Part shown: one piece after another, positions 1 to 63,920 of the stretch
Numbering within the stretch: position 1 is the first letter of the stretch
How the letters are laid out: each line of letters starts with the position of its first letter
Assembly (NCBI GenBank): GCA_963514005.1
Contig: OY740786.1
Coordinates: 67,890,001-67,954,000 of the forward strand
Reading direction: 5' to 3'
Length of the DNA stretch: 64,000 bases
Source: Raja brachyura
Taxonomy: Eukaryota
Position numbers and translations under genes: made by a program
Notes under the pieces: generated by a model
The model's input: the letters and a program-made list of their open reading frames with translations, nothing else
Database searches by the model: none
What the model was told of the DNA's origin: nothing

Positions 1-310
1 ACAAAGGGTGGCGGGTGTATGGAACGAGCTGCTGGAAGAGGCAGTTGAGGCAGGTACTATCGCAACGTTTAAGAAACATTTAGACAGGTACATGGATAAA
101 CACAAAACGGAGGAGTAACTCAGCGGGACCGGCAGCATCTCTGGAGAAAAGGAATGGGTGACGTTTTGGGTTGAGACCCTTGGATAGGATAGGTTTAGAG
201 GGATATGGGCCAAATGCAGGCAGATGGAACTAGTGTAGATAGGACATGTTGGTTGGTGTACGCAAGTTGGGCCGAGGGCCTATTTCTACACTGTATGGCT
301 CTATGACTCC
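1..310 (+). mobile_element. CR1/HER1-like LINE 3' end, interrupted by a hammerhead micro-insert at 99-180
   Basis: CR1 tail (gtatggaacgagctg...tttaagaaacatttagacagg...ctatgactc), repeated at 28300-28563, 33890-34250 and 50510-50765. Confidence 0.8.
99..180 (-). mobile_element. Penelope-derived hammerhead micro-element, TSD TGGATA
   Basis: TGGATA at 93-98 and 181-186 flanks the reverse complement of the Penelope tail. Confidence 0.8.
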
Positions 311-486: not shown

Positions 487-3400
487 CTGAAAGCAGAATA
501 ATAAAAAGTTATAAATTGGAAACTGCAGGTGCTCATTTACAAAGAAAAGACACAAAATGCCAAAGTAACTCAGCGGGTCAGGCAGCATCCCTTGAGAACA
601 TGGATAGGTGATGTTTTGGGTCAGGACCCTTCTTCAGTCTGACTGCCTTACAAATTAGTAATGGAATAGGGTACAGGGAAAATACATTGAGATAGTTATA
701 AACAATAGGGTACTGGTGAATACTTTGAGATAGTTATGAAGACGGATACATCAGGACCTAATGGGCAAGTCCCACTTAGGCAACTTTTTTGGCGACTGCA
801 GTCGCCACATGTTCGGGGTTGGTTGCAGGGGAGTCACCTTCATGGTCGTGAGGAGTTCCTGCATTCTGAGAACTATTCGGGGCCTCATTATGGTTGCCGT
901 GAATTTTTCAACATGTTGAAAAATTAGCGGCGACTAGAATGAAGCCGCCATGGAGAGTAGCGAGAATTCTCGTGCCGTAGCTGGGTCGCAAGGAGGTCCT
1001 AATGGGTTGCCAGGAGGTCGAAGGTTCTCGTAGGTTGTAGCCAGTGCTGACCGGTGAATTTCATTGGCTCATTGGGAAAAGAAATGTAAGCAGTAGTTTT
1101 CAGAACCAAGGATAACCTTGGTTAAATGTCCGCCGAACTTCACAGCCGTGTATCTCTGGCTTCTTAAAAGTGTTCTCCACCCTTCTCCCCCCCACTTTTA
1201 AAGGACTTACCATACACTGTGCTTGAACCGCCTTAATTATAGCACCAACCTTCCTGTTCATCGTGATGTGTGTCTGTATCACATTGGCTTTTTGTGTGTG
1301 TGTGTGCGTGCGTGCGTGCGTGTGTGTGTTCCACTCTGACAGTCGCCATTCCAGTTGCTGGTTTTTCAGGCGACTGCCGGCAACTTGACGATTTCTTTAA
1401 GAAAGACCGTCGGCAACTTGTCAGTCGTCGGAAAAATTGCCTAAGTGGGACAGGCCCATTAGGATAAACTATTAAATTGGGAGAGGAGAGATTGTAACAT
1501 CATTAGGCAGTAAAGTGAGAGCAGCAGTTATTGAATAAGCCAACACCCGACATGTGGGATTTGCTTAAAGCCACTGATCAGAGTTCAGGAGCGATAAGGA
1601 TGGCAAGTTAAGGGAACCTTGGATGGTAGATAGGTGTAAATTTGGTCTAAAATAAAACATTTGTAAAGTTAAGGAGGGTGAAATCAAATAGGGCCTTTTA
1701 TAATGAAAGTTGGAAAGACCTCATGGAGGGAAGTAGGAGGGCCAGAAGGGGCCATGAAATGTCAATGGCAAATTGGATTAAAGGGCAACCCAAGGTATAC
1801 ATTAAATACAAAAGGGTAGCTGAGGTTGATTTAAAGCGAATCCCATGTGTCAGGTGTAGACTTACTCAATAATTGCTGCTCTCAATTTATTGCTTTATAA
1901 TGTTATAATCCTTATTCATACATTAAAAATAAAAGGTAATAAGGTCACTATTAATGATTTTACCTTGACTTCCATGGTTGGAATAACAACTTCAAGATTC
2001 TTTATTTTTGTGATAGGCTGTGTTGCAGGAATTTCAATGGCTTCTACAATTAGAGAAGGCACAATACATTTTAAATACTTTGTTATATAGAAGTAATTAA
2101 TCATTTAAAATCATACAACTGAGAAAGATTAGGAATGCAGGAAAACAAAACTAAATATGGAAAGTGCCAGACCAATTCCTTCCACATATCATCTATATAT
2201 TTTGTTTTAATCAGCATAAGCACCAAAGATCTATCGAAGTAGTTCTTCACTTCCTTCTCTTAAACAGGTAGCCCAAGTAACCAGACCAAAAGTAAGAATG
2301 TTTTTTAGAAGTAAAAGTATCTAAATATGCAACATATCCAGCTCACTACCAAACTTGACTTACATAAGAAACCATATTATTTAGAGAGGAGCAATAGAAA
2401 ATGGGAAATGTAAGACAAATCACTTTTGATACCCTTAAAGAGCCGCCAGAAAATATTTTTTTCCTTTTCTATTAATATTGGTTTCCATACATATTTTTAA
2501 ACCATTAATGAAACTTGGGTTCGTAAATAATGAACATAAAATGTTAACAAATACTTACTTCTTTCTGTTTTCCATTTACTAGTGTCCATATTTGCAAGCG
2601 TGATTAAGGAATCGCATAATCTCTCAATGTCCTTTATCATTTTAGCTTTAGATTTTCGAACCGTATTTATTATGTTACTGGCAGCATCCATTCTCTCCTA
2701 AAGCAGTAATAACATAGTTGAGACGATCTGAAATGAATACTATCCACAGCAATAAAATATCAATTATTTTGCAAATGTGAAAGAGATCCTATGGTCTCAA
2801 ATAAAAATATCCAAATCAGAATGTAAATGTATCAGTAATTTGCTTTAAAAAAAAAATAACTTTCACACTTTTTATTTTAAATGTCAGTCCTATCAAATCT
2901 CCACTTTATAAGGTTATCAGTGAAGGAAGGAATGGATTGACAATTCAGTCACTCGGAATGTGTATCCATTCCATGTGCAAAGTTGCCAATTGTGATCATT
3001 TTGGAGAAAGCAGGAACTGCAGATACCGGAATTTTGAGCGAAACACAAAATGCTGGAGTAACTCAGCAGGTCAGACAGCATCTCTGGAGGATAGGAGTAA
3101 CTCAGCAAGTCAGGCAGCATCACTGGAGGACACAAGAGATGTTGCTTGACCCGCTGAGTTACTCCAACGTTTTGTAGTCAATTTGGTGCATCTGTTACGC
3201 CGAGGACTTCATGGACAGCAACAAAAAAAAGCGTTAGATGCACAGCAGCTTAGTTATGTGCAGATAGAGAAGGAACAGGTGGCCACCAGGCAGAACAGGA
3301 GAAGCAAGCAGGTGGGTACTGGTAAAGGCAATTGTTCCTGGGGGGAATGGCACTGGGAGGAAAGTGAGTGAGAAGTAATAAAGAATTCATGAGTAGTTTA

Positions 3401-6400
3401 CAATTGAAGGGTAATCTGATTCTCATTACTCATCACAATTTACCAACAAACCTGATCTAAATGTGGCATCTCCTTTTTTGTATGTTTACCCCTCCTCAGT
3501 TCTTGAGGTTTCCCTAGAATGTCATCCTTGTTTGCATTGGATAAGGCTAAAATGATAAACAGTGTGTGATGTGGATGATCCAATGAAGTTCTTTCAATTA
3601 GCTGTAAGACATTAATAAAACAAAATTATGAGAATACATTGTTATTTATGAAGGAGACAGATAAAAATTCAAGATATTCCACTCTTTAAAAAAAAAAGAT
3701 GTCATTCCTTGGTCTTTCTTTTGTATAAACAATTCTACTATCCTTCTTACACCTTCCGATTCCTAACTAGCATTCTTCTCCCCAAGAACCTATTTGTGTC
3801 TACCTAATTATGGACGGCAGGATCGAATTTCAACATTTTATGCGAATTAAAAGCTCTCTCACTGATTTTTGCTCTTACTCTCCTGATGAAATTAGAATTT
3901 CAAACATGTAACCATGACCAAGGGTGTATCAATATCTACTGCATCCGTTGCTCCAGATGCCAGCTGATCTATATCAGTGAGACCAAGCGGAGGCTTGGCA
4001 ATCGTTTCGCCCAACACCTCCGCTCGGTCCGCAATAACCAACCCGACCTCCCGATGGCTCAGCACTTCAACTCCCCCTCCCATTCCGTATCCGACCTCTC
4101 GGTCCTGGGCCTCCTCCACGGCCAGAGTGAGCAACACCGCAAGTTGGAGGAACAGCTCCTCATATTCCGCTTGGGGAGTCCGCATCCTTTGGGTTTAAAC
4201 ATTGAATTTTCTCAATTCTGTTAACCCTGGCTGTCTCCTCCCCTTCCCACCTCTCCCTCAGCCCTCGGGCCCTGGCATTCCTTCTCTCTCTATCTCTCCC
4301 CCACCCAAGTCGCACTAGCTTCTCATTTTCACACTACAAACAGCTTACAATGGCCAGTTTCCTTTATCATCGATACTTTTTTGCATATCTTTCATTCATT
4401 GTTCTTTATCTCTCCACATCACCATCTATATCTCTCGTTTCCCGATCCCTAACCAGTCTGAAGAAGGGTCTCGACCCGAAACGTCGCCTATCTCCTTCGC
4501 TCCTTAGATGCTGCTGCACCCGCTGAGTTTCTCCAGCCTTTTGTGTACCCTGTATCAATATCTATATGGGTCGGTGGGGGCGCTGCAAGCCGGCAGCCCT
4601 GCCAGCAATGTGTTAGTTCTTTCTACTTTTTTGTTTTTTTAGTGTGTCCTAATGTAGGTTTTCAATGTTTCTCTGTGTGTCTTGTGTGTGGGGGGGGACA
4701 AGGGGGAAAACCGCTTAGGTCGCCTCCTCCATGGAGCGGCGACTTTATCCATGTCGCCTCCCCGCGGCCTAACATTGAGGATCGGTGCAGCCTTTCTCGG
4801 AGACTTCAGCAGTGGGCGCAGCGTGGACTTTCGTCGAGGAGCAGGCGAGCCCTAGCCGGGGGTCGCCGGAGGGGAGCGCTCCGTTCGCTGGCCCATGGCA
4901 GCTTGAAGCCGCGGTCTGCGGAGCTCCAGCTGACGCAGCGTCTGCAGCCTGGGATCCCTCGTTGGGGACCCAGGAGGAGAAGAGCTCTGACCGCTGGTCC
5001 GCGGCCTATTTTTACCGCGGACGCGGCAGGGTCTTACCATGCTGAGCGGGATCCCTCACCGGGAACCCCTGGAAAGGAGCTCCGACTGCCGGCCCTGAGG
5101 TGCTTCTAGCTGCAGCGCAGCGGGGACTTTAGATCTTCGACTGCCGGCCTACACCAACTTGAAGCCGCGGTCTCCGGTGGGGAGGCACCGATTCAGTACT
5201 TACCTGGACTTTACCATGTCTACACATCTGGACGCCCGCAGCGGCGACTGCGGAGGGTTGAGGTCCTGACCACAGGGGAAATGGAGGAGGAATAGCTACA
5301 TTTTGTGCCTTCCACCACAGTGATGAATGCTGTGGTGGATGTTTGTATTAAATTTTTATTGTGTATTGTGTGTTCTTTTTTTATTGCACCGCTGCTGGCT
5401 AATTAATTTAACTTGCACTTTATGTGCAAGTGACGAATAAAACTGATTGACTGATTGATAGATATATATGACCCACACTGCAATGATCTTTCAAACTTTA
5501 AGATTAAATAATTTTATCAAAGCACGTTTGATTATTTGTACCAATCCCATTTAGAAGAGATTAGAATAGGTGTTGTATATAGGCCCCTGAATATCAGTTG
5601 TGATATCAAACACAGTATGAATAAGGAGGTGCACGTAATAGGAGTAATACAGAAATCAGATCAAAAATACTTCTTCACGAAAATCGAAATTGTGAATGGC
5701 TCATGTTGCCCCACACCCTCATGAACAAGTTACAAATTGAATAATCCAAATAAAAAATAACGAGAGAACTCAGTGCATAAAATTATAAAAATGTGCAGAA
5801 TGTAAGATTATTTAATGCATATGACGGTCAACAACAAAATTTGAAACAGTGGGATGTCCTGGAGAAATAAACAAAACTATGCAAGTACAAGTGTTTTACT
5901 TCCTTTGGATTCTGTCACTTTTCTAGTCAAGACCACTGGAGGGGCACCACCCATCAGTGGCAGATGCAGTATGTGCAAAAGCTGTGCAGAAAAACAGCTT
6001 CCAGCAACAGGTGTACCTATTGAGATACTCCAAGATTGTATCAATGATGGGCCATTCAGTTCTATCCTGGAATATTATGGATTTGCCTTATCCGGGCAAC
6101 TGCATAATCTGCTGCAGAGTAATTGTGTATGGAATGTGTATCACATTTTACTAGCTTCAGATTTCCCTACAATGTAATCTTTGCATTTTTATGTTTTCAT
6201 TTGTTTTAATATATATTTTTTATTTTTTTTATATAGATAGAAAATAATAGAGGGAGAGAAAAGAAACCAGAAAGTTAAAAGAGAATGGAATAATCAGCTA
6301 ATTATACATAATTGGAGATATGTCCATGGATTATAAAATGTAATTCTTCATCTAATCCTTGATTCGGGTTTCAGTCAGGTTCTCGTGCCGAACCGGTTTG

Positions 6401-9400: not shown

Positions 9401-12400
9401 AGGAAAAGTAGAATTTTTATAAAAAGCTCTTTCTGCAGTACAAGCCTGTACATGGACAAACATTATTAATCTAGGTTTTGATTCAGACTTTGCTTATTTG
9501 CTTCAAGGTTCATATCATTCTATCTTTTACAGAATTAAGTAGTTCAGTTCAGTAGGAGTGTGAGCACATCTTCTGTTCTAATTTTTTTTTTTTTTGTAAG
9601 TATCTTATTTTCCTGGAAGGTGAACCAGAGATTAATTAGACCAAATCATAAGAAAGTAATGTGTAGGAAGGAACTGCAGATGCTGGTTTAAACCAAAGAT
9701 AGACACAAAATGCTGGAGTAACTCAGCGGGCAGGCAGCATCTCTGGGGAGAAGGAATGGGTGACTAGACCCTTCAGTTCAGGCTAGACTGAAGAAGGGTC
9801 TCGACCCAAAACGTCACCCATTCCCAGATGCTGCCTGTCCCACTGAGTTACTCTCGCTTTTTCAATCAATCAATCACAATAATACTTTATTAGCCAAGTA
9901 TGTTTTGCAACATACGAGGAATTTCATTTGCCAAGTCAGTCATACAAATAAAAAGAAAAAGAACACACAAAAACATTTTCACATAAACATCCATCACAGA
10001 GACTCCTCCACATTTCTCCCTGTGATGGAAGGCAAAAAAAAGTTCAATCTCTTCGCTTTGCTCTTCTGCGGTCAGGGGCCTCGGGGTTTCCGTTGACAGG
10101 ATGATCTTGACTCCCTTAGCCAGCGGCAGGCCCTCCGCGTCGAGGCGATCTGCTCCTGCATCGGGGGGATGTCAGCTCCCCTGCGCCAGACGATCGAACC
10201 TCGCGTTGGGGCTGGTCGAACCTTCCACGACGTTGGAGCTCCCGACAACCACGGCCTCTCCCGAGACTGCGAGCTCCTGAAGTAAAGACCGCAGGTCGCG
10301 GTTGGAGCTATCCAGGCAAGGGATCGACTCCGATGTAAGTCCATGCCCCGCGGTGGGTCCCAAGGTCAGTCCGATAAAGCCTCCAGCTCCATCGATGTTA
10401 AACCGGAGAATGTGATCCGAAAATGAATCGCATCTCCGGCAAGGTAAGAAACTGAAAAAAATGTTTCCCCCGACCCCGACCCATCCCCCCACATAAACAA
10501 ACAAACAAACAAACCGGAGAAAACTTATACAAACTTTTAACACATACTAAAAATTAAAAAAGACGAAAAAACAAACAGATTGTTGGCGGGGCTGCCACTC
10601 ATACCATTTGTGTCTATCTTCATAAGAAAGGAAATTTGAATGTAGGTCTGAGGCAGGTTGATCAGTCCAAATTGTTCAAAATCTGCTTATCTTTTTTATA
10701 TTTGTAACTAGTTGTGCAGAGATATTCATATAACCAATAATACTGGCAGTATAATGAAGAATAATTACAGCTATATTAACTTTAAATGACTGAACATAAT
10801 TGCTCAGTAAAATCAATATAAAATGTCTTCATTGAAGGAGCAAGGCATTAAAATAAAGTGTATTTTCAATTACCAGGCAAGATATTTCCGTCAAAGTTGT
10901 CCATGTAAATAAAATGGGCACACAGGAAACAAATGATATGAAAAAGTAAGGTATTGCAAATGCAAGATTAAATTAAAAGCATTTCACATCAACGACGTTT
11001 CACAAGAACATCAGAAAATATGATTGTGTCTGATTTATGTTGGACCAAACTCCTTTCTGTGCCATTGATCATACGTGTCTGTTCCTCAATATATCATATG
11101 CTTATACCACCTACCTTTTAAATACTTCTACAAGAACACATATTGGTAATGGTTTAATATTGTCATGTGCACTGAGATAATCTTCTTCTTGCGAATGAAA
11201 CATAAACCAAAGGAATAGTTAGATCTCAAGCTGGGTGTTGAGCAGCCAGGTTGTTGTCTCTGCGTCAATGTCTGCCAGGCCCTGGGCTCCATTTGGTGGG
11301 TGGTAGAACGGGCACCCAGAGATGACGTGGTTGGCTGTCTGTTGTTCTGCTCTGCATTCACAGGCTGGGCTCTGGTGGAGCCCCCATCTCCACATGCTGG
11401 CATTGAAACGCCCAACTCTAGTACTAAGTCTGTTGAGCTTCACCCATGCTCCTCTGGGGAGGTCAGACCCAGGACAGCTTTAATCTGGTGAAGAGATGTA
11501 GCTGCATAATGGAGATGAGGTTGCCTTCCACTCCAGAGACCACTTGGTGGCTATCCAGTATGCTTTTGTCTCAGTTCGCTGGATGGATGCTAGGAGTTGT
11601 TTTCCATGTGGAGCAAAGGGGTGACGGGACTTCAGTCAGGGTGGCCTCTGCTCTCTGCTGACAGCCTGATGGATGAGGTGATCTGGGTCCATGGGACGTC
11701 GAGATAGTGCCAGAGTTGCTGCTTGCCTTCGGATCCCTGCAGGCAGAATGCCTGTAAGTATAGGGAGCTGCTCGACTGGAGTAGGTTGAAGGCACCCTGT
11801 GATGGTTCACATGGTGCAGTTCAGAACCGTGTCTACCAGGCTAGTATGTCTACTTCTACTCCACATGGGTGCGCAGTGCTCAGCTGGAGCATACACAAGA
11901 GCTAAGGCAAAGGTGCAAAGAGTTGCTGGACTGGCTCCCCAACTAGTTCCTGCCAGGCGTCAGATGAGGCCGCTACGTGCCATGACCTTGTCGCGGAGAC
12001 CAGCCAGGTGTTGACGGAATGTAAGCGACTTGTCCAGCTTTACGCCGAGTAAATGAGATAACACTGAGATAATGAAAACCTTCTACACAATCCAGTCAAA
12101 TCATATCATACATCATACCATATCCTGTCCATGATCCTGATAAAAGATCATTAACCTGAAACACTGACCTTGTTTTTCCCACCATAGTATCTGAACTGAA
12201 CTGCATTTCCAGCATGTTATATTTATATTTTAAACTTAGTCTAAAGTGGGACCCGTTGGATTGGGTTGGGTCTCCGACGCTGGGCTGCTGCTTGGGGCTG
12301 GACTGCTGCATGGGGCAGGGCTGTTGCTTGGGGCAGGGCTGCTGCTTGGGGAGGGGCTGCTTTGGGTCCCTCCGAAAGTCCGGTTGGAAACCTCCGCCGG

Positions 12401-18400: not shown

Positions 18401-21400
18401 ATCTGATCACCTCTAAACCTTTCCTATCCACATGGGGAGCATCCGCGAGAAAAGCAGTAGCGCACTGCTACCAAGATGCATAACTCCAAAATAAAGCAGT
18501 GGGCTTAAGAGAATTGTTTATGTAAGTGTGTGTTCATGTAAATCGTCTATTGCGCAAGTCAGGGAGTGTCTGCATTTTGATTGTGACCTGGTTTGAAGTC
18601 CAAAATCTGCATTTATAATTAAAGCATAAGTATGATAAGATGACAATTTTACCATAAAAATGAGCGCAATTCAGTTTATTGCAGCAGAAAACTTTGTATT
18701 TACTTGCTTGGAGGGATATGATCCCACTGCATGTTTCTCCAGGCTGCCTGGAAGCGGATTTCCTGCAGTTCCTCACACCATTCTGTATTTTCAACTTCAA
18801 GCCCCTTTAGATATGTAGTTAGAATATGGCATAGTCCAAAGTTCTGTAAAGCCTCCAATAAACAAGTACAAATTAATCTTGGTTATCATCAAACTGAGCA
18901 TGTTAAATAGAAAAATACGTGCAGAAAAGCATTGTCCACAAATAGATCGACATCTTATTAATCAATAGTTGTCAGTTGATGGCACTACCTTGACTCCCTC
19001 CATTACTTAGCTTATAATTGTGATGGCAACATACAGCAACTGCAACTAACCCCAAGTGGATGTTAGCTATTTTTCATGAGTAGATTATTTTGGTTTCATG
19101 GTTTTATGTAATTGAGGAGTGAGTGAGGTGCTACTGTTTAATGCATCAAATTGCGTCCCAGATATCTAGTATTCAGCATCAAGGCACATTGTCCCAATTT
19201 CGGAGATAGTTGTGGAACACAATAACATGAAATGGTGGCTTCATTTTGGAGACAAGAATCTTGACTTTGTTTTTATTAGTGCTCAGCTGTGTGTGTAACT
19301 TGTCAAGTAGTTACAAACTCCTGCTGATTCAATAAAATTTAAGCAATTGGAAGTGGTCTATTATGAAAAAAAATTGTTTACATGTTATGCAGTCAAATCA
19401 TACGAAGTATGAATACAATCAAGCCACACATAAGTACAACAGGTAGTGCAGAGAAAAAATACCAGAAGTGGAAGGGCCACAATTGGTACAATTGATCACT
19501 TCCCTCTGGACTCTGGACTGCCAAAGCTGCCACAGCCAGACATAAAAACAGTTTTTTTCCACGAGTAGTAGCTCCGCTCAATAACCAAAAATCTGTAGCC
19601 CCCTTTTGCTCTGGTATTTTATTTAATTCACATGTTTGATCAATGATGTTTTATTATTAATGTTTAATGTTTTATGTATCATTTTTAACTCTAACTGTAT
19701 GTCATGTCACTTGTGGGTGGAGCACCAAGGCAAATTCCTTGTATGTGAATACTTGGCCAATAAATTTATTCATTCATTCGTTCACAATGAGGTAGGGTGG
19801 GAGATCGGGACTACACAGGTTGTGTTGTTGAAAATCAGTTTAGTCAGTGGTAATAGAACTAGGCTACTCTTTATGTTGAACCTTGATCACCCCAAACTAG
19901 ATTATAATCTCTTTCCTTGCTATCTTTGATGCTTTCTCAATTTAAAATGTTCAATTAAAACAGAATTGATTAATCAATTGAGTGCTGTGTCGTGATCTTC
20001 AGGCTTCCTTGGCCTTACTTCCCATAAGACTTCGACATCTAAATTTACTACTGAGGACTTCCCAAGCCACGATGTTCATTATTCTAGTCATTTTTTTCCA
20101 ATCAGCGCAACAGTGATGCAGGATTCTAGAAACTTATTAAATAGATACAATTTAACATATGTGTATCAGAATATATTGCTATTTTCCAAAGATTTGAACA
20201 CAAAAACCTAGACACACTCAAATACACTAGGAAAGTCATATAATGGGGTGCTATTTTCGAACTAAAGTATTTTCTCTGCATACAGGTAGATACGCAAGAT
20301 ACCTTTGCAGGGTAATTATTCACAGTGAACTGGCCAATTTCTTGCTTTCTACCAACATTACTAAAACAGGTCTGAAGAAGGGTTTTGGCCCAAAACGTTG
20401 CCTATCTCCTTCGCTCCTTAGATGCTGCTGCACCCGCTGAGTTTCTCCAGCCTTTTGTGTACCCTCGATTTTCCAGCATCTGCAGTTCCTTCTTTATTAC
20501 TAAAACAGGTTATCTGGCCATCACAAACATGCAGAAATTGGGTGCTGCTTTTACCACTGCGACTATACGTCATAAGATACTTTTTCATTGGCTGTAACGT
20601 TCTTTGACTATTCTGAAAATATAAAAGATGTTATAAATGTGTAGAAAAGAACTGCAGATGCTGGTTTAAATCGAAGGTAGACACTAAATGCTGGAGTAAC
20701 TCAGTGGGACAGGCAGCATCTCTGGAGAGAAGGCATGGGTGACGATTCAGGTTGAGATCCTTCTTCAGATTGAAGAAAGACATTATATAAATGCATGCCT
20801 TTCTTTTCACATCAGTTTTTTTTGTAACTGAGCTTTTATCTTTTGACGCTAATGAGGAAGAAACCAAAGGAGCAACTGGGCTGAAATTGTCTTGCTCCCA
20901 ATTGCTAATGATTATCGGATGTATAATTATGAAATTATTCTTATTTAATTTTCATTATTTAGGTTGCTGGTTGAGTATTACGGTAATGGCATGACTAAAT
21001 CAAAAAGGATATTCTTTCAGGCTCATTCACCTCACCACAAATACAATGCAACGCACCAGTAAACTAAGATAACATTTTGTAACGTTAAAGGACTGTCCCA
21101 CTTGGGCATAATTTGCGCCTCATTTACGCGACATCATTTACGCGTCGTGACGAGCACGTGATGCACGCATGGCGAGGCGTGGTGGCGTAGTCAGTTACGC
21201 GCGGCGCCCCAGGATTTTGGGATTCACAAAATCTTCGAGCGCCACCTGCGTGACTCGCAAATGATGCTCAAGTGGGACAGACCCTTTACTCCTTCAGTGA
21301 TATATATATATATATTTTTTTTTAATGTAACACAGTACACTGTCTGTGAACAACTGCAGGTCCCGGTGTTCAAACACATCCCAGTTGGTCCTGTCGAGGC

Positions 21401-36400: not shown

Positions 36401-39400
36401 TTCTTAAATTACTCCAAAAATTGATTTATTGATTAAACTTTGCTCTCATGGAAAATACTCTCATGGAATTTGTGTGGAAAAAATTAATAAATCAAAACAA
36501 CTTTTTTTTTCCCAATTTGCAGATGAGAAGTATCACGTTATGGAAAAAAACCCTAATTTTTTAGCAAAGCAACTTCCACCCTTCTCCTGGAACCTGTAGC
36601 GAAAGATTAGAACATCATTTCGAGCTGACCAAATGAACATAGCAGCTATTTTAGACTATTTTAGAAATTTTAGACTATTACTTCCAACACAGGATGAATA
36701 GTCACAATGCAACATCTACAAGGGAAAATCGAGATTTTATCTGGGAGTTATATGTACATGTTACATGTACACGGAAGTATGCAATAAACTCTTCAACAAA
36801 ATTACGCACAAGCAAGGCTAATTAAAACCGCTGTGTACATTTTGCTGATATGATGCTACAAAACTATACAAATAATATTCTGTGCAATAAATATAATGAT
36901 TCACACAAATTCACTCTAAAGGGTATATGTAATGCAGACTATAGCGATCTGCAAGGCCTTTTTTTTGCTCTTTGCTTCATTTCAAAACATGCATAAACTC
37001 ACCATTGGTCAATGAGAGCATTATTAATTACACCGAGGAGAATGCAAACCAATTTAGAATTATTTTCTTTCAAAACTTCTGACGCCTTGAAATGAAATTC
37101 ATCTTTCTTGTTTTGTAAAGCAATGGTGGAAAAGTCAATTGGACCCATTTCTCCAAAGCACCTGCCTGCAGCTTCTGAAATCACAAAATGAATGTAAACC
37201 TCAAGGATATATTCAAATAATAATTGCTGCAAACTAAATAATCCAGAACCTATAAATTGCTTTGAAGGTTTTCATAATGAATTGACTAACACATCAAAGT
37301 GCAACTTGCTAAACTTGTAATGTAACAGGTTCAAGGGAAATTATCTTCTTCAATGTTTACATACAAAGGTATTATCAAGTGAAGATACACCCAAAATGCT
37401 GGAGTAACTCAGCAGGACATGCAGCATCTCTGGAGAGAAGGAATGGGTGACGTTTCGGGTCAAGACCATTCATCAGACTATTATCAAGTGGCTCCGGAAT
37501 AGAATACTGTTTGATCAGATGCATACCAACCCCAGTTTCAAACACATGCCATTTTCTACACCAGTCATTAAAATGTGAGTTGGCTCAGAGATAGAAGGAA
37601 CTGGAATCTTGAGCAAAACACAAAGTGCTGAGGAATACAGCAGGTCAGGCAGCATCTGTAGAGGGATTGGACAGACGTTTTAAGCGGGACCCTTCTTCAA
37701 TCTGAAGAAGAGTCCAGACCCAAAACATCATATGTTTATTCCCTTCACAGCACGGTGGAACAGCGGTAGAGTTGCTGCCTTACAGCTCCAGAGACCCGGG
37801 TTCAAACCTGACCATGGGTGCTGTCTGTACGGAGTTTGTACGTTCTCCCTGTGACCGCATGGGTTTTCTCCGGGTGCTTCCAATTCCTCGCACACTTCAA
37901 AGACATACAGGCTTGTAGGTTAATTGGCTTCGGTAAAATTGTAAATTGCCCCATATGTGTGTGTAGGATAGTGGTAATGTGCGGGAATCGCACAGACTCA
38001 GTGCAGCGCAGACTCAGTGGGCCGAAGGGCTTGTTTCTGTGCTCTATTTCTAAACTAAACCAAAAAAAAGATGTTGCTTGGCCCACTGAGTACCTCCAGC
38101 ACTTTGTGTATTGCTCAGCGTTAATTGTCCTTTATTTAATGATGAAGACTAATTTAAGCAGGAATTGGAGAGAAATGGCTCAAACTAATTCTGGATAGGA
38201 TTCTTACATCAACTGAACAGTTCAGGCTGGGTTTTACATCATATGAAACATATTCTACGTTTTAAATACCAATCCATTTGTCACTTTTGAACTCAGCTGG
38301 GAGGTACTGGTTTGTGGTCCTGTGATGTGAGTTTCAAATATTACTATGTTAAAAGAGCTACACAGTGAAAGTTTTTGTTTGATGATATTTGTTTATTCAG
38401 ATTGAAAGGCACTAAAACCCCTTAACAATATCCATTTGTTCCTTAAAGTTTTCTAGGTTATTGGTTCCAGTGTGTGTTGATAATGCTTTACTAAGAAACA
38501 TTTCCAATCCTAAAATTGCCATTTACATAAATGAACCAGTGTTCATTTGCTCAATTAAAAACATTTAAAATACAAGAAAAATTAGTCCGTAAATCTAAAG
38601 TGTCACTTTTGAAAGGAAGACTTTCTAGTTTTCTTTTCTTTTTTTATTTTCTTTATTAGAAGTAATGTACATTACAATGACATAAGCCAAAAATAACATA
38701 ATACATTTCCTGTGCCACTTCTTATTTTATACTTTAAGAAGAAGAAGAATAGGAAGAAGAATAGAGAGTTACATAGGATAGTAAGTGCGTGAAAGAGTGA
38801 TCAGGAAGAACACGTAGAAGCGTAAGGCACAAGAAAGACTAAAAAAGAAAAACAAAGGAAAAGAAAGAAAAAAAAATAGAAGAGAAAATATGAGAAAGTA
38901 AAATAAGCTAAGATAAAAGGGATGTACCTACTTCGTATCTTTACACACCCCTCACCAGGTCCTGATACCATTTATTTTCAGAGTTGTGTTGCACCCTATG
39001 CTTGTAATAAGTCGATAAATGGAGACCAAATCTTTTGGAAATGGTCTGATTTGCCTGCTAGGAGGAATCTCATATCTTCTAGGTGTAACATTTCAGACAT
39101 ATTTGAAATCCACATTTTTATCATTGGTGTGGGAGCGTTTTTCCAGAATTTAAGTATAAGTTTTTTTGCCATTATTAAAGCATAATTAAGGAAGCTCTTT
39201 TGGAACGAAGTCAGCTCAAAGCTGGCTTCCATTGTTCCAAAAATAATCAATTCTGCATTCGGTTTCAATTTTATTTTGAATAATTTTGTAAAAATTTCAA
39301 AGATTTTGTTCCAGAATTTTTGGATTTTTATGCAAAAAACAAAGGAATGTGCTATTGAAGAAGGGTCTCGACCCGAAACGTCGCCTATCTCCTTCGCTCC

Positions 39401-42400
39401 TTAGATGCTGCTGCACCCGCTGAGTTTCTCCAGCTTTTAATGTAACCCAAGGAATGTGCTATGGTTACTTCTTGGGATAGACATTTATCACAAATTGGGG
39501 AAACATTAGGAAAAAAATTACTTATTTTAGTTTTTGAATAATATAGTCTATGTAAAGTTTTAAATTGGATTAAAATACATTGATTAAAATACATTAAATT
39601 ACATTGATCGAGCATTTGTGCACATATAGCAAGTGTTTATCCCAACTCTCTTTCTAGATTTTTATAGCTAGTTCTTGTTCCCAATCTCTTCTAATTCTGT
39701 CAGATGATGGTATTTCTATATTTAGGATAGTATTATACACATATGATATTAAATTAGTTGAATCCGCCTTCATATTCATTCCTTCGTCTAATAAGCCTGG
39801 AGGCAAATTTTGATATTCTTGTGTATATTTTTTCAAGTAATCACAAGACTTTCTAGTTTTCTAATGCATTGCTATTGTCTATGAAGACTGAGGATCATGT
39901 TTTTTCTCTCCCACACATTGAATCATAGGCAGATTAAGCACTCACCCAATATATCTTTTCCAGCAGGGTGACAGATAGCAGATTTGCACAATTGCAGAAG
40001 ATTCACGACTAGTTTCACAAGGACACTGGACTCTGGATCATCTGAAGACATTTTAGAAATGTATTAAATCAAGTCTAACAGTATAGCTTGTAACCTTTAA
40101 AATAATACAGCTGCAGAAACTTCCACCGTTTGTACTAAAATTGATATAAAGTATGCACACATTACAATTGTACATTCATAATGCAGTCTTATTGTATGGT
40201 GGAAATTCAGCCATCCACAACACTGAGCAAGGCATCTTTTCATTTTAAGAAAGGAAATGTACACACTTTCTCAAGTCCCCTGATACAACAAATAAAACTA
40301 AGGATTGAACTTGGATTGGGAGGTTAAAGCTGCTATCTACGTTAACATGTCATATGATCTGAGTGGTTTACCAAGTTTTGACAGAAGGATAAGATAAGCA
40401 AACCTAATCACTCCGAGGGCCACTTGCTGAATCTCCTGGGAGGGCAATACTGCTCTGGTACTAGATTCCTTATTGAGTTGAGCAAAATTCAAACCTTCTA
40501 TGGCTTGGAATCAAAGAGGCTAGGGGCCGGGGTAGAGTAAGGCAAAGGTGGGTAGCAAACACATGCCTTCTTCTTGGCTTATAAAATCCCTTTATTCTAA
40601 TTTGTTTAATTAATTAATTTATCAATTTGGAGTAAATTCCTGCTATAAACAGTAGGTTTAATGCACACCATCTAATTTAATCTATTGTAACAGTGGTGCA
40701 GTCGGGTCAATATGTTGATACTGTATCATTTATCTGCAAGAAAGATTTAGTGAAGCGCAGCTCAATTTTACAGCTTGTTTTTAACACAATTGTGCTCTGT
40801 TGAAATAACATTTTAATGTACCGCTGCCAGGATCTTTATTCATTAAGATACTATCAAGTTACCTTGACATTCTTTTAGCAGGATTTTAGTGTCCTCTTTA
40901 TGAAGTGCTAGCTGATTTTTTAGATCATTTAATCCCACAAGCCTAGTCAAGGGCAAGGACTCACAGGAATTGACTGAGAGGAAGTGATTGATTTCCTGAA
41001 ATAGAAAAAATAAAGTAGGTAAAGGAAAACATAAATTTATAATCACCTTATTTTTTCTTCTACAATCAACTTCTACCTCATTTTCTGTTATCAAACTTCT
41101 TCCGTTCTCCAGGGAATGAAGTCTGTGTTTCTGTAATCTCTCATTTATGGCCTGTTATTTCTATTTCCATTAGTCTTTTGTGTCATTGTCTGTGAATACA
41201 GTTCCTCTAATCTTTGAACTTAGTTATTTGGATGCTTCATGTTTACCGTCCTTCATTGTCTTTCGCTTCTTTGTCCTTCTGGTGTTCTAGACCAGTGGTT
41301 CCCAACCTTTTTTAGTTCATGGCTCCCTTAGGCTCTTTAATTTTTCTGTGGCCCCCCCCTGACATTATTAGCAGAAAAAAAGTGGCCCCCTTCATTGAAC
41401 CTGTGGCCCCCTAAATCCCCACATTTTTCTGTGGCCCCCCTGAAATTTGCCATGACCCCTTTGAGGCCATATGGCCCCAGGTTGGGAATCACTGTTCAAG
41501 CATTCATCGATTTCAGCCCTGTTTGATTTGTTCTTTCATAACATGAAACTCAACTCACTTCTTCCAATATTTATTTCCCTTTACCAACCACAGGCATCTA
41601 AATCTCAAGTTACCAAGTCCTGTAAACATTAGCACCCAGAAATACATGGATTCAAATGCCAGAATGAACTTGAGTGGATAATGTTGGCTGAAATTTCAAT
41701 TTAGCATCGATGGTGTGTTGCATTATCAGAAGTTAAGTCTTACTGATTAGGTTTAACTGAGGCTCTATACATCTATATGCACAGTGACATGGTGCATTCA
41801 AAGAAAAGCAAAGAGTTGTATCGTGTCCTAGTCAATATCGCTACTTCAAAAATTTCTCTCCCACAAAATAATTAATTGGCAAATTATTATCAGTTTATTA
41901 CTGTCATGTGTATCAATACACTTTGAAAACTGCTTTGGTGTTATTCAGTCAAATCACATTATACACGAGTACAATCAAATCACACGAGTATAACGGGTAC
42001 TGCAAAGTGAAAAATAAACAGTGCAGAATATAGTATTAGAGCCAAGAGATAATGCAGATCTTTTAAAAAGTGCAAGGGTCAGGATTGGGAGATCAGGACT
42101 ACATCCTTAGTTTATGTTAGATCTGTTCAATTGTCTGATAATAGTGCCATTTCCATAGCACCAGATTGAGGAACAGTTTCTTCGCCATGGTTATTCAACT
42201 TCTGAACGTACTTCTCATAAACTAGGTGTGCAATTCCAATTCTCCAACTACCTCATTGCAGCCCTTGCACTTTATTTTTGTCTGCACTTTCTGATGTATT
42301 ATATCTTGCTCTGATTACATTTCTCCTTGCAGTATCTATTGTACTTGTGTATGATTTGATTGTACTCATAAATGGAATGATTTGACTGCGTAGGATGCAA

Positions 42401-45400
42401 AAGAAAGTTTAATTTGTTTTGTGGTAACATGCCATAGTAGGTTTCTTTTTTGACAGTTTTTCACTCTTCTTGCTCTTTAATTGATCTCATCTTCTTCAGA
42501 CCAGAGATACAGCACTGAAACAGACCCTTTGGCCCACAGAGACTGTGCTGACCAGTGATCACACCTTACACTAGCACTATCCTACACACTAGGAACTTAC
42601 AAACCTTTGGAGTGTAAGAGGGAAACAGAACTGGCTCCCGGAGAAAACCCACAGGGTCATAGGGAAAACGTACAAATTCCATACAGACAGCACCCATAGT
42701 CAGGATTGAGCCCGGGTCTCTGGCACAGTAAGGCAGAAGCTCTACCGCTGTACCACTGCTCTCCAACTTATTATGAATTTGTTTGAAAATTCTCAATTTA
42801 ATAAATTCAGGAATAGTCCAATCTATAATGTTTCTAGCAGGAACCAATAAAATAAGCAATATTGGATCCAACAGAAATCAGTGTCAAGTGGCAATACATT
42901 CTGCAAAGTGCATGGCTGTCTGGACATTGACTATAGAGACAAGGTACACACAAGGAACTGCAGATGCTGGTGTGACAAAAATACATAAAGTACCAGAGTA
43001 AGTCAGTAAGCATCTCTGGAAAACATTGATAGGCACCATTTTGGCTCGAGATCTTTCTTCGGACTTTAGAAGAGTCCAAACACGAAACATCACCTATCCC
43101 TGTTCTCCAGGAATGATGCCAGACTCACTAACTTTGAGTCTCTAGCACTTTGTGTCTTTTTTGGTCATTGACTATATTAATGCCAAGAAATTCAGAAGAT
43201 ATAAAGAAAGTTGACAGGATATTACTGAGTGGCAATGCATACTCAAAAAGCTGTAGGAAATTGGAGGATCAGCACCTCATATTTCACTTGGGCAGCTTAC
43301 AACCCAGCGGTATGAATATTGATTTCTCTAACTTCAAGTACCCTTGCTTTCCCTCTATCTACATCCCTCCACATCCTCGTTCTACTGTCTTCCTGTTAAA
43401 TGTTACCGCATTGTATGCCGCAATGTCACCTTCACCATAGCTTAAAATGAACCATTTCCTTATTTGTTATCTGCTTTGATCTTTCATTTTCACACCTTAC
43501 CCTTCCACATATCTCTAGTTTCCCTCTCCCTTGACTCTCAGCCTGAAGAAGGGTCTCGACCCGAAACGTCACCCATTCATTCTCTCCAGAGATGCCACCT
43601 GCCCTGCTGTCTTACTTTTCTTGGTAACTTTACATTGAATTCTTGGACTCTGCCTTCTACCCGAGCATTAAATCTTTACCCAGTTATAAGGTTTTTTGGA
43701 TTAATGATAGTAATGTGATACTTCATGTAAAGTTAAAAGCTGCATTTATGAGCTTTATAAGTATGTTCACAAAATAAAAAGCATGAAATTCAAACCTCAA
43801 AATTCAAACATTAAAAAAATATTTTTACCTCCAATAATGTGAACCTTTTCTTACTATACTTGATTTTCTCCTGGATAAGACGCAGCTCTTTGAAATCAGG
43901 AAGATCGGGGAATGGATCCAACCGCCTAATTGCATGGTATAGGTTTTTATTGTCTTGATTAGAAATCACTAGATACTTCAACAACGTAAGGGCCTGGAAG
44001 AATTATAACTATAAATCACTAATTGTTTATATCACAATTAAAATTGAGAATAACAATCACAAAGAATCTTAAAACATTTATAAATCAGAATGGGAATAAT
44101 TATATGCATGATTCTCAGCTCCTACGAAGTTGAACTTTAAAATAACTTGTCCCCTATTTGTATACTCCAGAGATGCTGCCTGACCCACTGAGTTACTCCA
44201 TGTTAATGCATGAGGCGCATTTGGGGGGTCTGAGCCTGTATTCGCTGGAGTTTTGATGGAAGAGCGGGAAATCGCATTGAAACCTACCGAATAATGAAAG
44301 GCCTAGATGGAGTGGATGTGGAGAGGATGTTTCCAGTAATAGGAGAGTCTAGGACCAGAGGGCACAACCTCAGAATAACAGGATGTACATTTAGAATGGA
44401 GATGAGAAGGAATTTCTTTAGCCAGAAGGTGGCGAATCGGAGTCATTGGCACAGACGATGGTGGAGGCCAAGTAATTTGGTATTTTTTTAAAACGGAGAT
44501 TGACAGGTTCTTGATTAGTACAGATGCCAAAGGTTATGGGGAGAAGGCAGAAGAATGGGGTAGACAGGGAAAGATAGATCAGCCATGTTTGAATGGTGGT
44601 GTAGATTTGAAGGACCAAATGGCCTAATTCTGCTCCTATCACTTATGACCTTTTTAATGGCCTAATGCTGCTCTTATGTCTTATGGTCCCTTGACTCCAC
44701 CAATTTACAATTCTTATAGGTAGACGCAAAATTCTGGAGTAACTCAGCGGGACAGGCATCATCTCTGGAGAGAAGGAATGGGTGACGTTTCGGGTCGAGA
44801 CCCCAAAGCAGTACCCATTCCTTCTCTCCAGAGATGCTGCCTGTCCCGCTGAGTTACTCCAGCATTTTGTGTCTAACTTCGATTTAAACACGCATCTGCG
44901 GTTCCTCCCTTACAATTCTAATCGCCGTATCAGAATCCCAGCTTCCTTTGGACTCATAATTAGTGACTTCCTTTCAGCCTTGTCAGTCTGAATCTTGAGA
45001 TAAACCCCTCTAAATAACTATCCCTTTGCTTCCCACTAAAGACCTAACCCAGCCTATTAAAAGCTTAGGGTTACAGATGATTTTCAACCAGCTATTGACT
45101 TTCTGATTGTGTCTTTGATATATCATGGGATATTATTCCACATTAAAAGTAGCTCAATTTGTAGTAAGTGTTCAATTTTGTAGTAAGTGTTTAACATTTT
45201 CTTGCTAAGTTTGAAAACATATATAATTCATCCAATAAATCATTAGAACAAAAAAATGAATCCAATAATCATTAGAACAAAGAAGCCAACAGAATTGTTA
45301 TTGCACATCAATGTCTGACCTGTTGACGAATCTCTGGCTGTTCCTGGACCAATGGTGTTAATGTACCCACAATGACGTGAAGATGATTTTCCAGTGCATC

Positions 45401-51400: not shown

Positions 51401-54400
51401 GTAGACTCAAGAATCTAAGCAAAAGTAAACAGACATATGTATAACTCAAAACAATATGGCTTTATAAAATCCTGAACAACAAAAAATATTCTGCATTCGT
51501 TATTGACTGCCAGACAGGAACAATTGGTCACTACCGATTTATTATGCAATTCCAAAAATATATTCTGCATCACAAAACATTTGGTGATATTAGACTTTAT
51601 GTTAATATTTTTCCTTTCCGACCAGCAGGTCTTCCCAACATTGATACTTCATTTGCGTGACCGGAGTTAGAGGTGTTGGGAAATTTAAATGTAAAGATTT
51701 TAGACTTGAGATACAGCATGGAAAAAGGCCCTTCGGCTTACCATGTCCTTGTCGAACAGTGATCACCCCCGTACACTAACACTACCCCATGCACTACGGA
51801 CAATTTACAATTTTACAGAAGTCAATTAATCTAAAAACTTGTATATCTTTGGGATGTTGGAGGAAACCGGAGCATCCGTGGAAAACCCATGTGGTACAGG
51901 GATAATGTACAAACTCCGTACAGACAGCACCCGTAGTCATGGTCGACCATAGGTCTCCTGCGCAGTAAGACAGCAGCTCTACCACTGCGCCACACCAGAG
52001 ATTTCTGCACACAGAATGTTAATCTTTGACATGCATGCGCTTGATGTGTTATTCTTATACACAAAAAGAAAACAGGATGAGGAAGTAAACAGTGCCATTT
52101 GAACATCTGTTATGAAGATAACTGTTTACTTTCATAGTTACCTTTTTAACAAGCATAGGGTCTAGCTTGTTCTCCTTTAATGATTGGCAAATAGCAAATA
52201 GGGCCTGCTTTTCACATATGGGGCTGCAGCACATGATCAATGAAAGCACGATAAGCAACGTAGCTCTTCTGTTGCATTCCTCATCCTGAAGTTCTTCTGG
52301 GGATGTACGATTCTGAAGAAATGGAGAACATATTTTAAAAAGCCATGTACAATTGCACAGACAAGGCATCTTGGATTTGCATTGTGACATTAATGAAGAA
52401 TAATCTCTTACGTTGGTCTTGAGAGGCACCAGGAAGAGGCTGATCACAGGGAGAATGGAAGCAATATTAGATGGGATGACCAAAATCAACGATGCAGAGC
52501 TCAGCATTAAGAGGACAGAAAAAGGTGGAGATGTAGGTAGGAACTACTGGAGACAGAAGAATGGGAGTTTGGTCAGGGACTCTGAAGAAGATTAGAAATA
52601 AGGAATAATATTAATGCTAGACACAAAATACTGGAGTAAATCAGCGGATCAGGCAACATCTCTGGTGATAATTGATAGGCGGCATTTTGGGTCGGGACCC
52701 TTCTTCAGACTGATTTTAGGAGAGAGGAACTGGAAGCAAGAAAATAAAAGGGTATTTTCTTGCTTCCAGTTCCTCTTCGCTTTAATCAGACTGAAGAAGG
52801 GTTCATACCCGAAACATACCTATCCATTTTCTCCAGAGATGCTACCTGACCCACTGAGTTACTCCAGCATTCTGCGTTTCTCTTTGGTATAAACAAGCAT
52901 CTGCAGTTCATTTTTATTAATGATAATATTAATGTTTGGGAGAGAATTAAATATAATTGTCAAATACAAAATAATGCTCTGGAAAAGACACAAAGTGCTG
53001 GAATAACTCGACAGAGTAATGCAGTGAATAAGGTGGTAACTTTGAAAAACATGGATAGGTATTGTTGTAGGTTGAGACCCTTCTTCAGGCTCTGGATTTA
53101 GTTTGTCCTCTACGTCCTTCATAAAGGATTAATTGCCACGATTCATTTTCAGGTTACGATTTGGTGTTTCATGGATTCCTAATATTCCAGACAGTACTGT
53201 AATATGTAACATTATTTCACCATTTAGTGTCACAGACTGCCATCTATGGTTGCACATTGGGAATGAACTTCAAGTAAAGTTGCCTCCAGTATAATTGGAG
53301 CAATCTTTCTCTAATGCGAATGATGCAATTATTATAGTATTCATATATTTTTGTGAGCTTCCCTGTTACATATGGCAGGAATGAATAACGGAATAGTTAA
53401 TATTCCAGTGCCTTGCTGTGCCTCTGCAAGGTTATAAAATAGTTATATAGAGAAGAGGCTTTTAAAATTTAGAATTCTTAATGAAAGTTTAAAGCTACAT
53501 TACATTCAAAAAGTATTCAGACTCCTTCACTTTTTCTACATTTTGTTACATTACAGCCTTATTCTAAAATGGATTAAAATCTTTTTTTTTTAATCATCAA
53601 TCTACACACAATACCCCATAATAAAAAAAGAAAATAACAGGTGTATAGAAATTTTTGCAAAGTAATTCAAAATAAAAAACTGAAATGTCACATTTACATA
53701 AGTATTCAGTCCCTCTACTCAGTACTTTGTTGAGGCACCTTTTGCAGCAATTACAGCCTCAAGCCTTCTTGGGTATGATGCAACAAGCTTGGCACACCTG
53801 TATTTGGGTAATTTCTCCCATTTTGCTCTGCAGATCTTCTCAAGCTCTGTCAGATTGGATGGGGAGTGTCCATGCACTGTTATTTTCAGGTCCCTCCAGA
53901 GATGTTTGATCAGGTTCAAGTCCGGGCTCTGGCTGGGCCACTCAAGAACATTCACAGACTTGTCATGAAGCCACTCCTGCATTGTCTTGGCTGTGTGCTT
54001 CGGGTCGTTGTCCTGTTGGAAGGTGAACCTCCGCCCCAGTTTGAGGTCCAGAACGCTCTGGAGCAGGTTTTCATCAAGGATCTTTCTATACTTTGCTCCG
54101 TTCATCTTTCCCTTGATCCTGACTAGTCTCCCAGTTCCTGCCTCTGAAAAACATCCCCACAGAATGATGCTGCCACCACCATGCTTCACCATAGGTATGG
54201 TATTGGCTAGGTGATGAGCGATGCCTGGTTTCCTCCAGACGTGACACTTGGCATTCAGGCCAAAGAGTTCAATCTTGGTTTCATCAGACCAGAGAATCTT
54301 GTTTCTCATGCCTTTTGGCAAACTCTAAGCTGTCATGTGCCTTTCACTGAGGAATGGCTTCTGTCTGGTAACTTTACCATAAAGCCCTGATTGGTGGAGT

Positions 54401-62144: not shown

Positions 62145-63920
62145 CAGTGCCCTCCATAATGTTTGGGACAAAGACCCATCATTTATTTATTTGCCTCTGT
62201 ACGCCACAATTTGAGGTTTGTAATAGAAAAAAAATCACATGTGGCTAAAGTGCATGTTGTCAGATTTTATTAAAGGCCATTTTTATACATTTTGGTTTCA
62301 CCATAAAGAAATTACAGGTGCTTATACATCGTTCCCTCATTTCAGGGCACCATAATGTTTTGGACACATGGCTTCACAGGTGTTTGTAATTGCTCAGGTG
62401 TGTTAATTGCCTCCTTCATGCAGGTATAAGAGAGCTCTCAGCACCTAGTCTGAAGAAGGGTCTCGACATGAAACGTCAGCTATTCCTTCGCTCCATAGAT
62501 GCTGCCTCACCCGCTGGGTTTCTCCAGCATTTTTGTCTCCCTTAGATTTTTCCAGCATCTGCAGTTCTTTCTTAAACAACCTAGTTTTTCCTCCAGTCTT
62601 TCCATCAGCTTTGGAAACCTTTATTGCTGTTTATCAACATGAGGACCAAAGATGTGCCAATGAAAGTCAAAGAAGCCATTATGGGACTGATAAACTAGAA
62701 TAAAACTGTTAGAGACATCAACCAAACCTTAGGCTTACCAAAATCAACTGTTTGGAACATCCTTAAGAAGAAAGAGAGCACTGGTGAGCTTACTAATCGC
62801 AAAAGGACTCGCAGGCCAAGGAAGACCCCCACAGCTGATGGCAGAAGAATTCTCTCTATAATAAAGAAAAATCCCCAAACACCTGTCCGACAGATCAGAA
62901 ACACTCTTCGGGTGTGGGTTTGTCAATGACCACTGTCCGCAGAAGACTTCATGAACAGAAATACAAAGGCTACACTGCAAGATACAAACCGCTGGTTAGC
63001 CACAAAAATAGGATGGCCAGGTTACAGTTTGCTAAGCAGTACTTAAAAGAGCAACCACAGTTCTGGAAAAAGGTCTTGTGGACAGATAAGACAAAGATTA
63101 ACATATCAGAGTGCTGGCAGGAGCAACGTATGGAGGAGAGAAGGAACTGCCCAAGATCATAAGCACACCACCTCATCTGTGAAACACGGTGGTGGGGGTG
63201 TTATGGTTTGGGCATGTAAAGCTGCTGAAGGTACTGGCTCACTTATCTTCATTGATGATACAACTGCTGATGATAGTAGCATAATGAATTCTGACGTGTA
63301 TAGACACATCCTATCTGCACAAGTTCAAACAAATGCCTCAAAACTCATTGGCCGGCAGTTCATTCTACAGCAAGACAGTGATCCCAAACATACTTCTAAA
63401 GCAACAAGAGTTTTTCAAAGCTAAAAAATGTTCAATTCTTGAGTGTGCCAAGTCAATCACCTGATCTGAACCCAATTGTGCATGCCTTTTATATGTTGAA
63501 GAGAAAACTGAAGGGGACTACCCCCAAAACAAGCACAAGCTAAAGATGGCTGCAATACAGGCCTGGCAGAGCATCACCATATAAGTCACCCAGCAACTGT
63601 TGATGTCCATGAATCGCAGACTTCAAGCAGTTATTGCATGCAAAGGATATGCAACAAAATTCTAAACATGACTACTTTCATCTACATGACATTGCTGTGT
63701 CCTAAAGATTATGGTGCCCTGAAATGGGGGGACAAATTATAAACTCTGATGTAATTACTACATGGTGAAATCAAAATGTTTAAAAATTGCCTTTATTAAA
63801 ATCTTACAATGTGCACTTTAACCACATGTGTTTTTTTTCTATTACAAATCTCAAATTGTGGAGTACAGAGGCAAATAAATAAATGATGGGTCTTTGTCCC
63901 AAAAATTATGGAGGGCACTG
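62145..63920 (+). mobile_element. Second Tc1 transposon, full length, defective
   Basis: TIRs CAGTGCCCTCCATAAT.../...ATTATGGAGGGCACTG, TA TSD; transposase ~62639-63665 with VLWTDKTK, KHGGGGVMVW, LQQDSDPKH; stops and frameshifts. Confidence 0.95.
62450..62578 (+). mobile_element. Penelope hammerhead micro-element nested in Tc1, TSD ACCTAGT
   Basis: TSD at 62443-62449 and 62579-62585; insert begins at CTGAAGA. Confidence 0.85.

Follow-up and report, generated by a model that had tools for sequence, protein, structure and literature searches.

Why should several dispersed, hammerhead-derived insertions begin at nearly the same nucleotide of their parent? The question is raised by a 64,000-nt stretch of the Raja brachyura genome (contig OY740786.1, positions 67,890,001 to 67,954,000 of the forward strand; G000:C6:67890001-67954000 in a genome of 2.70 Gb), here called the window, which holds about 30 matches to the end of an element remnant at 4458-4550. 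Positions are numbered with the C of CTGA as +1 (window 4458 in the remnant). Five inserts had been noted as bounded by target-site duplications (TSDs), and the duplications are exact at all five coordinates (Table 1). Identity to the remnant is 94.8% for 20370-20465, 95.7% for 39356-39447 and 88.6% for 62447-62533. At three sites, paralogous host sequences join across the insert with an overlap exactly equal to the TSD: at 99-180 (47 paralog pairs at -6), in a repeat that we take to be CR1-like; at 39356-39448 (2 at -14), in a repeat whose translation presumably reflects an L1 ORF2 fragment; and at 62450-62578 (4 at -7), just upstream of what we assume from its translation to be a Tc1-like transposase. 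No host paralog of the other two inserts was present among the loci compared. The clustering of 5' ends is real and far beyond chance, as proposed, but the accompanying claim that all start at the CUGA box fails for two of the five, which have no intact box. The 3' ends, described earlier as variable, fall at two places: site A (about +89 to +95) for three inserts and site B (+126 to +129) for the other two.

Table 1. Features discussed in the text, in window coordinates.
Feature	Position	Strand	Details
Micro-insert, older subfamily	99..180	-	start +7/+8, without CUGA box; end site A; 6-bp TSD in repeated host element
5'-truncated long copy of parent PLE	3934..4550	+	broken GIY-YIG end, 3' UTR, hammerhead, site A end; 14-bp TSD 3925-3938 / 4551-4564, last 5 nt common to element
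TATA-like motif, young subfamily only	4427..4432	+	~30 nt upstream of inferred start sites (-33/-32)
Initiator-like CCAGTCT	4453..4459	+	inferred start-site cluster -4..-2; fits YYANWYY
Minimal type-I hammerhead	4458..4485	+	CUGAAGA, extra A, stem II, GAAAC-GUC; predicted cut after 4485
Micro-insert	20372..20495	+	start -2..+1 (GT common to TSD and insert); end site B, with tail; TSD 20357-20371 / 20496-20510
Micro-insert, older subfamily, CTGATGA core	37382..37478	-	start -3..-2; end site A; 12-bp TSD
Micro-insert, young subfamily	39356..39448	+	start +2 (without C of CUGA); end site A; 14-bp TSD in a repeat
Head-to-head pair, older-subfamily copies	44724..44872	.	same structure class as A+B pairs
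Micro-insert	62450..62578	+	start -3..+1; end site B; 7-bp TSD

The predicted parentage was borne out: the inserts are the pLTR tip, from hammerhead to tail, of a 3,969-bp, probably Neptune-type Penelope-like element (PLE), whose full length was reached by walking stepwise upstream through genomic copies. One natural full-length copy (L157) carries the repeat at both ends with a period of 3,969 bp and has a TSD. Another (L152) has an open frame of 1,208 codons with DKG and YIDD motifs, a Cys-rich linker and GIY-YIG; its Pfam matches, to RVT_1 at 693-860 (E=0.0048) and to GIY-YIG at 1112-1144 (E=0.0017), are both below the gathering score. A single ORF with RT and C-terminal GIY-YIG is the arrangement of EN+ PLEs, and a pLTR derived from a partial tandem, with an optional 30-40 nt tail, is that of PLEs; here sites A and B lie about 35 nt apart, and the first ATG of the ORF is about 35 nt past the tail. 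The L152 translation has CxxxxCxxC ahead of EN, in a Cys-rich, Zn-finger-like linker. Passages of PMC8557442 give a Cys-rich linker between RT and EN as characteristic of Neptune and common to Nematis, and by this linker the parent would fit a Neptune-type PLE, with the trait shared by Nematis. The Neptune PLEs portrayed in parts of PMC8557442 and PMC3846280 agree with the present element in RT, linker and C-terminal GIY-YIG, in a pLTR with a minimal hammerhead and an optional tail of about 35 nt, and in the occurrence of 5' truncation, tandem and head-to-head copies and solo pLTRs. Elsewhere in the genome, four copies form a head-to-tail array with a period of 3,965 (G000:C18:46361386-46373531), and an element copy recurs about every 20 kb in a segmental array (G000:C55:14860588-15002195).

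An anchor of 32 nt, taken downstream of the hammerhead, is matched exactly at 51,318 places in the genome. From the first 3.2 Mb of C1 and 264 kb of C6 we took 121 anchored copies and dropped nine (eight local duplicates and one at a locus edge). The 3' ends of the remaining 112 fall into two groups, 66 at +93 to +100 (site A) and 45 at +121 to +128 (site B), with one between. In the portions of PMC11167929 on Poseidon of Anolis (PAc), two internal RT start sites bound the PLE tail in vitro, downstream of the hammerhead, and by analogy with that biochemistry sites A and B would be the known pair of RT starts.

At the other end, the anticipated departure from uniformity along the pLTR is equally plain: 12 of the 112 copies stop at +10 to +60, 66 at -8 to +9, and 34 further upstream. 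The 17-nt boundary therefore takes 66 of the 100 copies that reach the hammerhead, while flanking rates predict 1.8-3.5% per 17-nt window. It lies about 27-32 nt upstream of the GUC cleavage site and, as suggested at the outset, is distinct from it. Genome-wide, the exact core from +1 to +31 occurs 35,267 times, and 62% of these lose parent upstream sequence within 5 nt. The classes ending at +1/-1 (5,910, by subtraction), -2 (7,033), -3 (4,464) and -4 (4,611, from a pattern one letter shorter) leave 13,249 of the 35,267 retaining CCAGT; of 30 such CCAGT loci, 27 run beyond -7, with ends spread over 1.5 kb. About 6 of 30 loci in the -4 class are other subfamilies passing through and many others reflect microhomology, so that the true limit lies at -4 to -2. 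Among older subfamilies, comparison of upstream sequence puts 45 of 58 copies at the boundary or in inverted arrangements, a less clean pattern with about four likely misclassed pass-through copies; mapping them by TSD alone was uninformative (a TSD in 40 of 227, many from tandems or pairs). An apparent second boundary at -614 was an artefact, being the truncation point of the reference copy. Parts of PMC8557442 and PMC3846280 describe pLTR length in Neptune PLEs as variable 5' truncation, whereas here two thirds of the cDNAs end in one 17-nt window.

Microhomology alone, at the palindromic CAG-T-CTG and at GGGTC, might concentrate junctions in this way, and it does account for the -4 class in inverted pairs and for many GG-TCTG junctions. 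As the general cause it is extremely improbable, given that 42 of the 66 copies ending at the boundary stand without an inverted partner and that chimeras joined by A linkers, described below, are not explained by it. The starts are heterogeneous (-4, -3, -2, +1 and +3), as for start-site clusters, and, judged from genomic copies, the boundary behaves like an RNA 5' end.

The hammerhead at 4458-4485 has the features of the minimal type-I descriptor in the sections of PMC4209133 that define it (core boxes, an extra base before stem II, palindromic 15.2-16.2); its local helix I is only about 2 bp, and an Rfam scan returned no hammerhead, only 14 weak matches. The 5' ends at the predicted cut are rare, with 68 filtered matches at +29 and 67 at +32 (no clear +29 excess) versus about 22,000 at the boundary, and hence cleaved RNA is not the usual template. 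Five long copies (L442, L454, L455, L463 and L464), belonging to two haplotypes, carry an AAA insertion precisely at the predicted cut, compared with no insertions at +30. A scan for insertions from +21 to +34 had 208 matches; one of the first 100 listed carried AAA at the cut, and most reflected slippage, and a wider A-tract control scan was swamped by point mutants. The AAA-bearing copies hint at rare footprints of hammerhead cleavage in vivo. Three tandem units with A linkers (L448-L450; G000:C14:63772947-63773044) also end at the predicted cut. At four further loci (L090, L096, L104 and L117) the part downstream of GAAAC, without a CUGA box, forms a tandem repeat of about 65 bp, a pLTR-derived minisatellite.

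In the original prediction, the folded ribozyme might itself act as an RT stop or junction signal; a protein bound at the boundary sequence would have the same effect. The boundary does coincide with the 5' edge of helix I, and a predicted helix pairs +2 to +10 with the tail, but the stop is beyond the fold, as copying of the hammerhead is complete by the time the RT gets to -3. The z-score of the fold is -0.81, the 5'-to-tail closing helix is missing from the consensus fold of 44 sequences (the single consensus helix there is invariant), and A- and B-primed copies stop alike (42/60 and 23/39). Longer copies bear on the same point. The best 40 matches to the ORF start were selected, whatever their junctions, and a full-length-type event was defined as one with the ORF unbroken to the end of the fetched stretch, the four-copy array being counted once (n=13); nine that stop downstream of +9 and three with an interrupted ORF (L190, L196 and L199) were left out of boundary-rate counts. 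The identical sequence is passed by 12 of these 13 events, compared with 34 of the 100 anchored copies (Fisher p=7e-5). Twelve of the 40 are tandem chimeras, and of their nine upstream units that reach +9, eight stop at -8 to +9 and one at -9, a rate again unlike the 1 of 13 for full-length-type events (p=2e-4). A sequence-intrinsic block predicts equal rates on the same sequence, and the unequal rates disfavor it; the boundary would instead seem to depend on RNA class. We regard a block by fold or protein as unlikely. If the main full-length RNA started at -4 to -2, its copies would be expected to begin there as well; 12 of the 13 do not, which counts against such a start unless a second RNA class or strand transfer is assumed for them.

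The chimeras share a layout. The first unit starts at the boundary, crosses the tail and extends into the ORF, as far as +389 to +1290; a short, mostly A-rich linker comes next, then a fresh boundary start that ends at A or B. In the cases inspected the whole structure lies within one TSD. A G directly precedes the templated start (-4, -3, -2, +1 or +3) in 10 of the 12, versus 21 of 109 dispersed truncations (p=1.6e-5). A targeted search for A linkers upstream of CAGT gave 180 matches, with G in 35, A in 11 and T in 54 of the first 100 listed. A sense element fragment ends just upstream at 23 of 34 AAAG-CAGT loci, versus 0 of 16 AAAA/AAAT-CAGT loci; the equivalent pattern at -3 is weaker (2 of 11 G loci versus 1 of 19 others). 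In bulk, G precedes the start in 54 of 100 cases at -3 and 63 of 100 at -2. This excess is largely confounded: of 45 G cases inspected, 21 proved to be inverted junctions, several of them copies of a single amplified composite. Only five single extra bases could be resolved by TSDs, four of them G. G also precedes some A-tract junctions at +29 (four rows), so the extra G may simply have been added without a template, or may be the terminal base of a tail. The acceptor 3' ends of jumps recur (L408/L432 at +2091, L406/L436 at +2263, L409/L489 at about +2810, several near +200), which suggests preferred termination or landing sites. Jumps use other RNA ends too: L419 (+1916 to +1990), L190 and L400 show A-linker junctions within the ORF and one that leads to a poly(A)-bearing element fragment in antisense orientation.

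If the boundary is an RNA 5' end, it could be a transcription start. The initiator (Inr) consensus is YYANWYY, and CAGT is retained across subfamilies with differing upstream sequence. The TATA-like motif occurs in 70 of 76 young upstream sequences, which as copies of one family are not independent, and in 1 of 32 older or other upstream types, though the boundary there is the same. In D. virilis, the Penelope start site falls in the pLTR, according to a passage of PMC2377424. Assembled RNA contigs of other organisms, from four of 24 listed runs, showed no starts. The physical 5' end at -4 to -2 might otherwise be made by processing, through a splice acceptor, an endonuclease or ligation to a circle, with tandems arising from rolling over ligated circles. 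AG at -3/-2 closes a pyrimidine-rich stretch with no AG from -117, CTRAC precedes the boundary in several subfamilies, and the D. virilis intron runs up to the 5' end of helix I (in the relevant part of PMC4209133). Against this, the 260 nt upstream contain no GTA/GTG donor, most TSD-resolved copies have no exon sequence between TSD and start, no GT..AG joint was seen among 15 joints listed of 89 (in assembled RNA contigs of other organisms), and the starts are spread over about 8 nt. As for circles, linkers are identical between units in L439 and L448-450, as rolling would have it, though such identity does not discriminate jumps from a circle or a duplication; in L424, four units all ending at +64 lie inside one TSD with linkers that change each round, and this locus would be easier to reconcile with successive jumps along a single linear RNA than with a ligated circle or a duplication of DNA. 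Overall, processing appears rather unlikely.

Head-to-head pairs add a further regularity. Of 19 neighboring pairs, 18 combine one A end with one B end (p=2e-5), and the copies of the sole exception lie 1.8 kb apart and are probably two events. Self-copying of one cDNA would not yield such strict pairing; the simplest reading would be twin priming on both target strands. In the in vitro work reported in parts of PMC11167929, PAc nicks and extends both strands and is a predicted dimer. Descriptions of head-to-head copies in passages of PMC8557442 and PMC3846280 differ in this respect, as the arms here are one A end and one B end. At least seven loci (L211, L330, L341, L352, L353, L376 and L378) share one pair, its junction and 3' flank included, and by that recurrence it is carried inside another amplifying repeat. 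Further older head-to-head pairs lie in the window at 52621-52877, 9703-9862 and 3043-3175, one with a 68-nt palindromic spacer.

Tens of thousands of copies of similar size might also point to an independent SINE- or retrozyme-like family, as first supposed, that amplifies from its own master copies, and parts of PMC8557442 and of bioRxiv 10.64898/2026.07.22.740005 describe non-autonomous PLE derivatives and pLTR-derived retrozymes, respectively. The sequences argue otherwise. Variants and their frequencies do not differ between micro and long copies (main haplotype in 51 of 66 micro and 24 of 30 long copies), none of seven variable columns separates the classes (all p>0.2), and 35 of 47 micro copies have at most one difference from a long copy. 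A SINE has its own lineage and an internal promoter; here haplotypes are common to long copies, and the 82-129 nt contain no tRNA-type head. The non-LTR retrozymes of the preprint resemble the inserts in being short, non-coding, hammerhead-bearing and pLTR-related, but the parts that define them describe at least two tandem units, each with a complete ribozyme, whereas the copies here are mostly monomers or A+B pairs, many without part of the core, and form no separate lineage. All five window inserts are monomers, two without an intact core, and rare tandems exist (L424, L439 and L448-450). A family of this kind is very improbable.

The inserts, then, are probably strong-stop-like cDNAs, primed about 95 or about 130 nt into a short RNA and running off its likely capped 5' end at -4 to -2. 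Sites A and B would be RT start sites on that RNA, as predicted by analogy to Poseidon, and the pile at -4 to +3 a Pol II start cluster, with Inr and a TATA-like motif at about -32. The RNAs from this cluster would be short, prematurely ended, oligoadenylated and sense. A single insert would result when the run-off cDNA, with some trimming, is joined by microhomology across to the far side of the nick; a head-to-head A+B pair, when it anneals to a twin whose synthesis was primed at the other site; and a tandem chimera, when it jumps to the oligo(A) 3' end of an RNA, often the one just copied, for another round. Lacking the upstream promoter part, micro-inserts would be dead-end by-products without a lineage, and long and full-length copies would derive from longer read-through RNAs.

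Minus-strand strong-stop DNA of retroviruses and LTR elements is primed near the RNA 5' end, runs off it and is transferred to the RNA 3' end. Transfer onto an RNA 3' end can also be likened to the R2 template jumping treated in parts of PMC8857657. Here, by contrast, priming would be by nicked target DNA, with the short product itself integrated and jumps made without terminal homology. The text of PMC11167929 finds hammerhead cleavage dispensable for Poseidon in vitro and, unlike the reading here, describes no run-off at the RNA start, twin priming or end-to-end jumps; Fig. S2 of that paper may show the same 5' drop in Anolis. The origin of pLTRs, one-sided tails and inverted repeats in PLEs is stated as open in passages of PMC2377424 and PMC8557442, and a passage of PMC3846280 proposes antisense self-priming. 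Solo pLTRs, tails, inverted pLTRs and single minimal hammerheads are already known. None of the open-literature titles, abstracts and passages searched describes, for PLEs, a fixed boundary at the 5' end, pairing of A with B ends, or jumps from cap to tail. The inserts are a by-product class of a known element type, with a mechanism that is apparently undescribed and testable.

The family is young, with >50,000 exact 3' anchors, and it records intermediates at base resolution: the 5' run-off point, A+B pairing, and jump junctions with an A linker and G. All three translate directly into predictions for the in vitro assay already available for PLEs. We offer tentatively, with somewhat less than even confidence, the fuller picture of a PLE RT that acts as a dimer priming both target strands at two internal RNA sites, with run-off of capped transcripts integrated as strong-stop DNA, cap-to-oligo(A) jumps on the same RNA, and rare in vivo footprints of hammerhead cleavage left in the genome. 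If true, one cycle accounts for solo pLTRs, the one-sided tail, head-to-head palindromes, and tandem and pLTR regeneration. The strong-stop reading likely explains the thousands of single minimal hammerhead motifs in animal genomes, and the poorly understood copying mechanism of PLEs would become directly testable.
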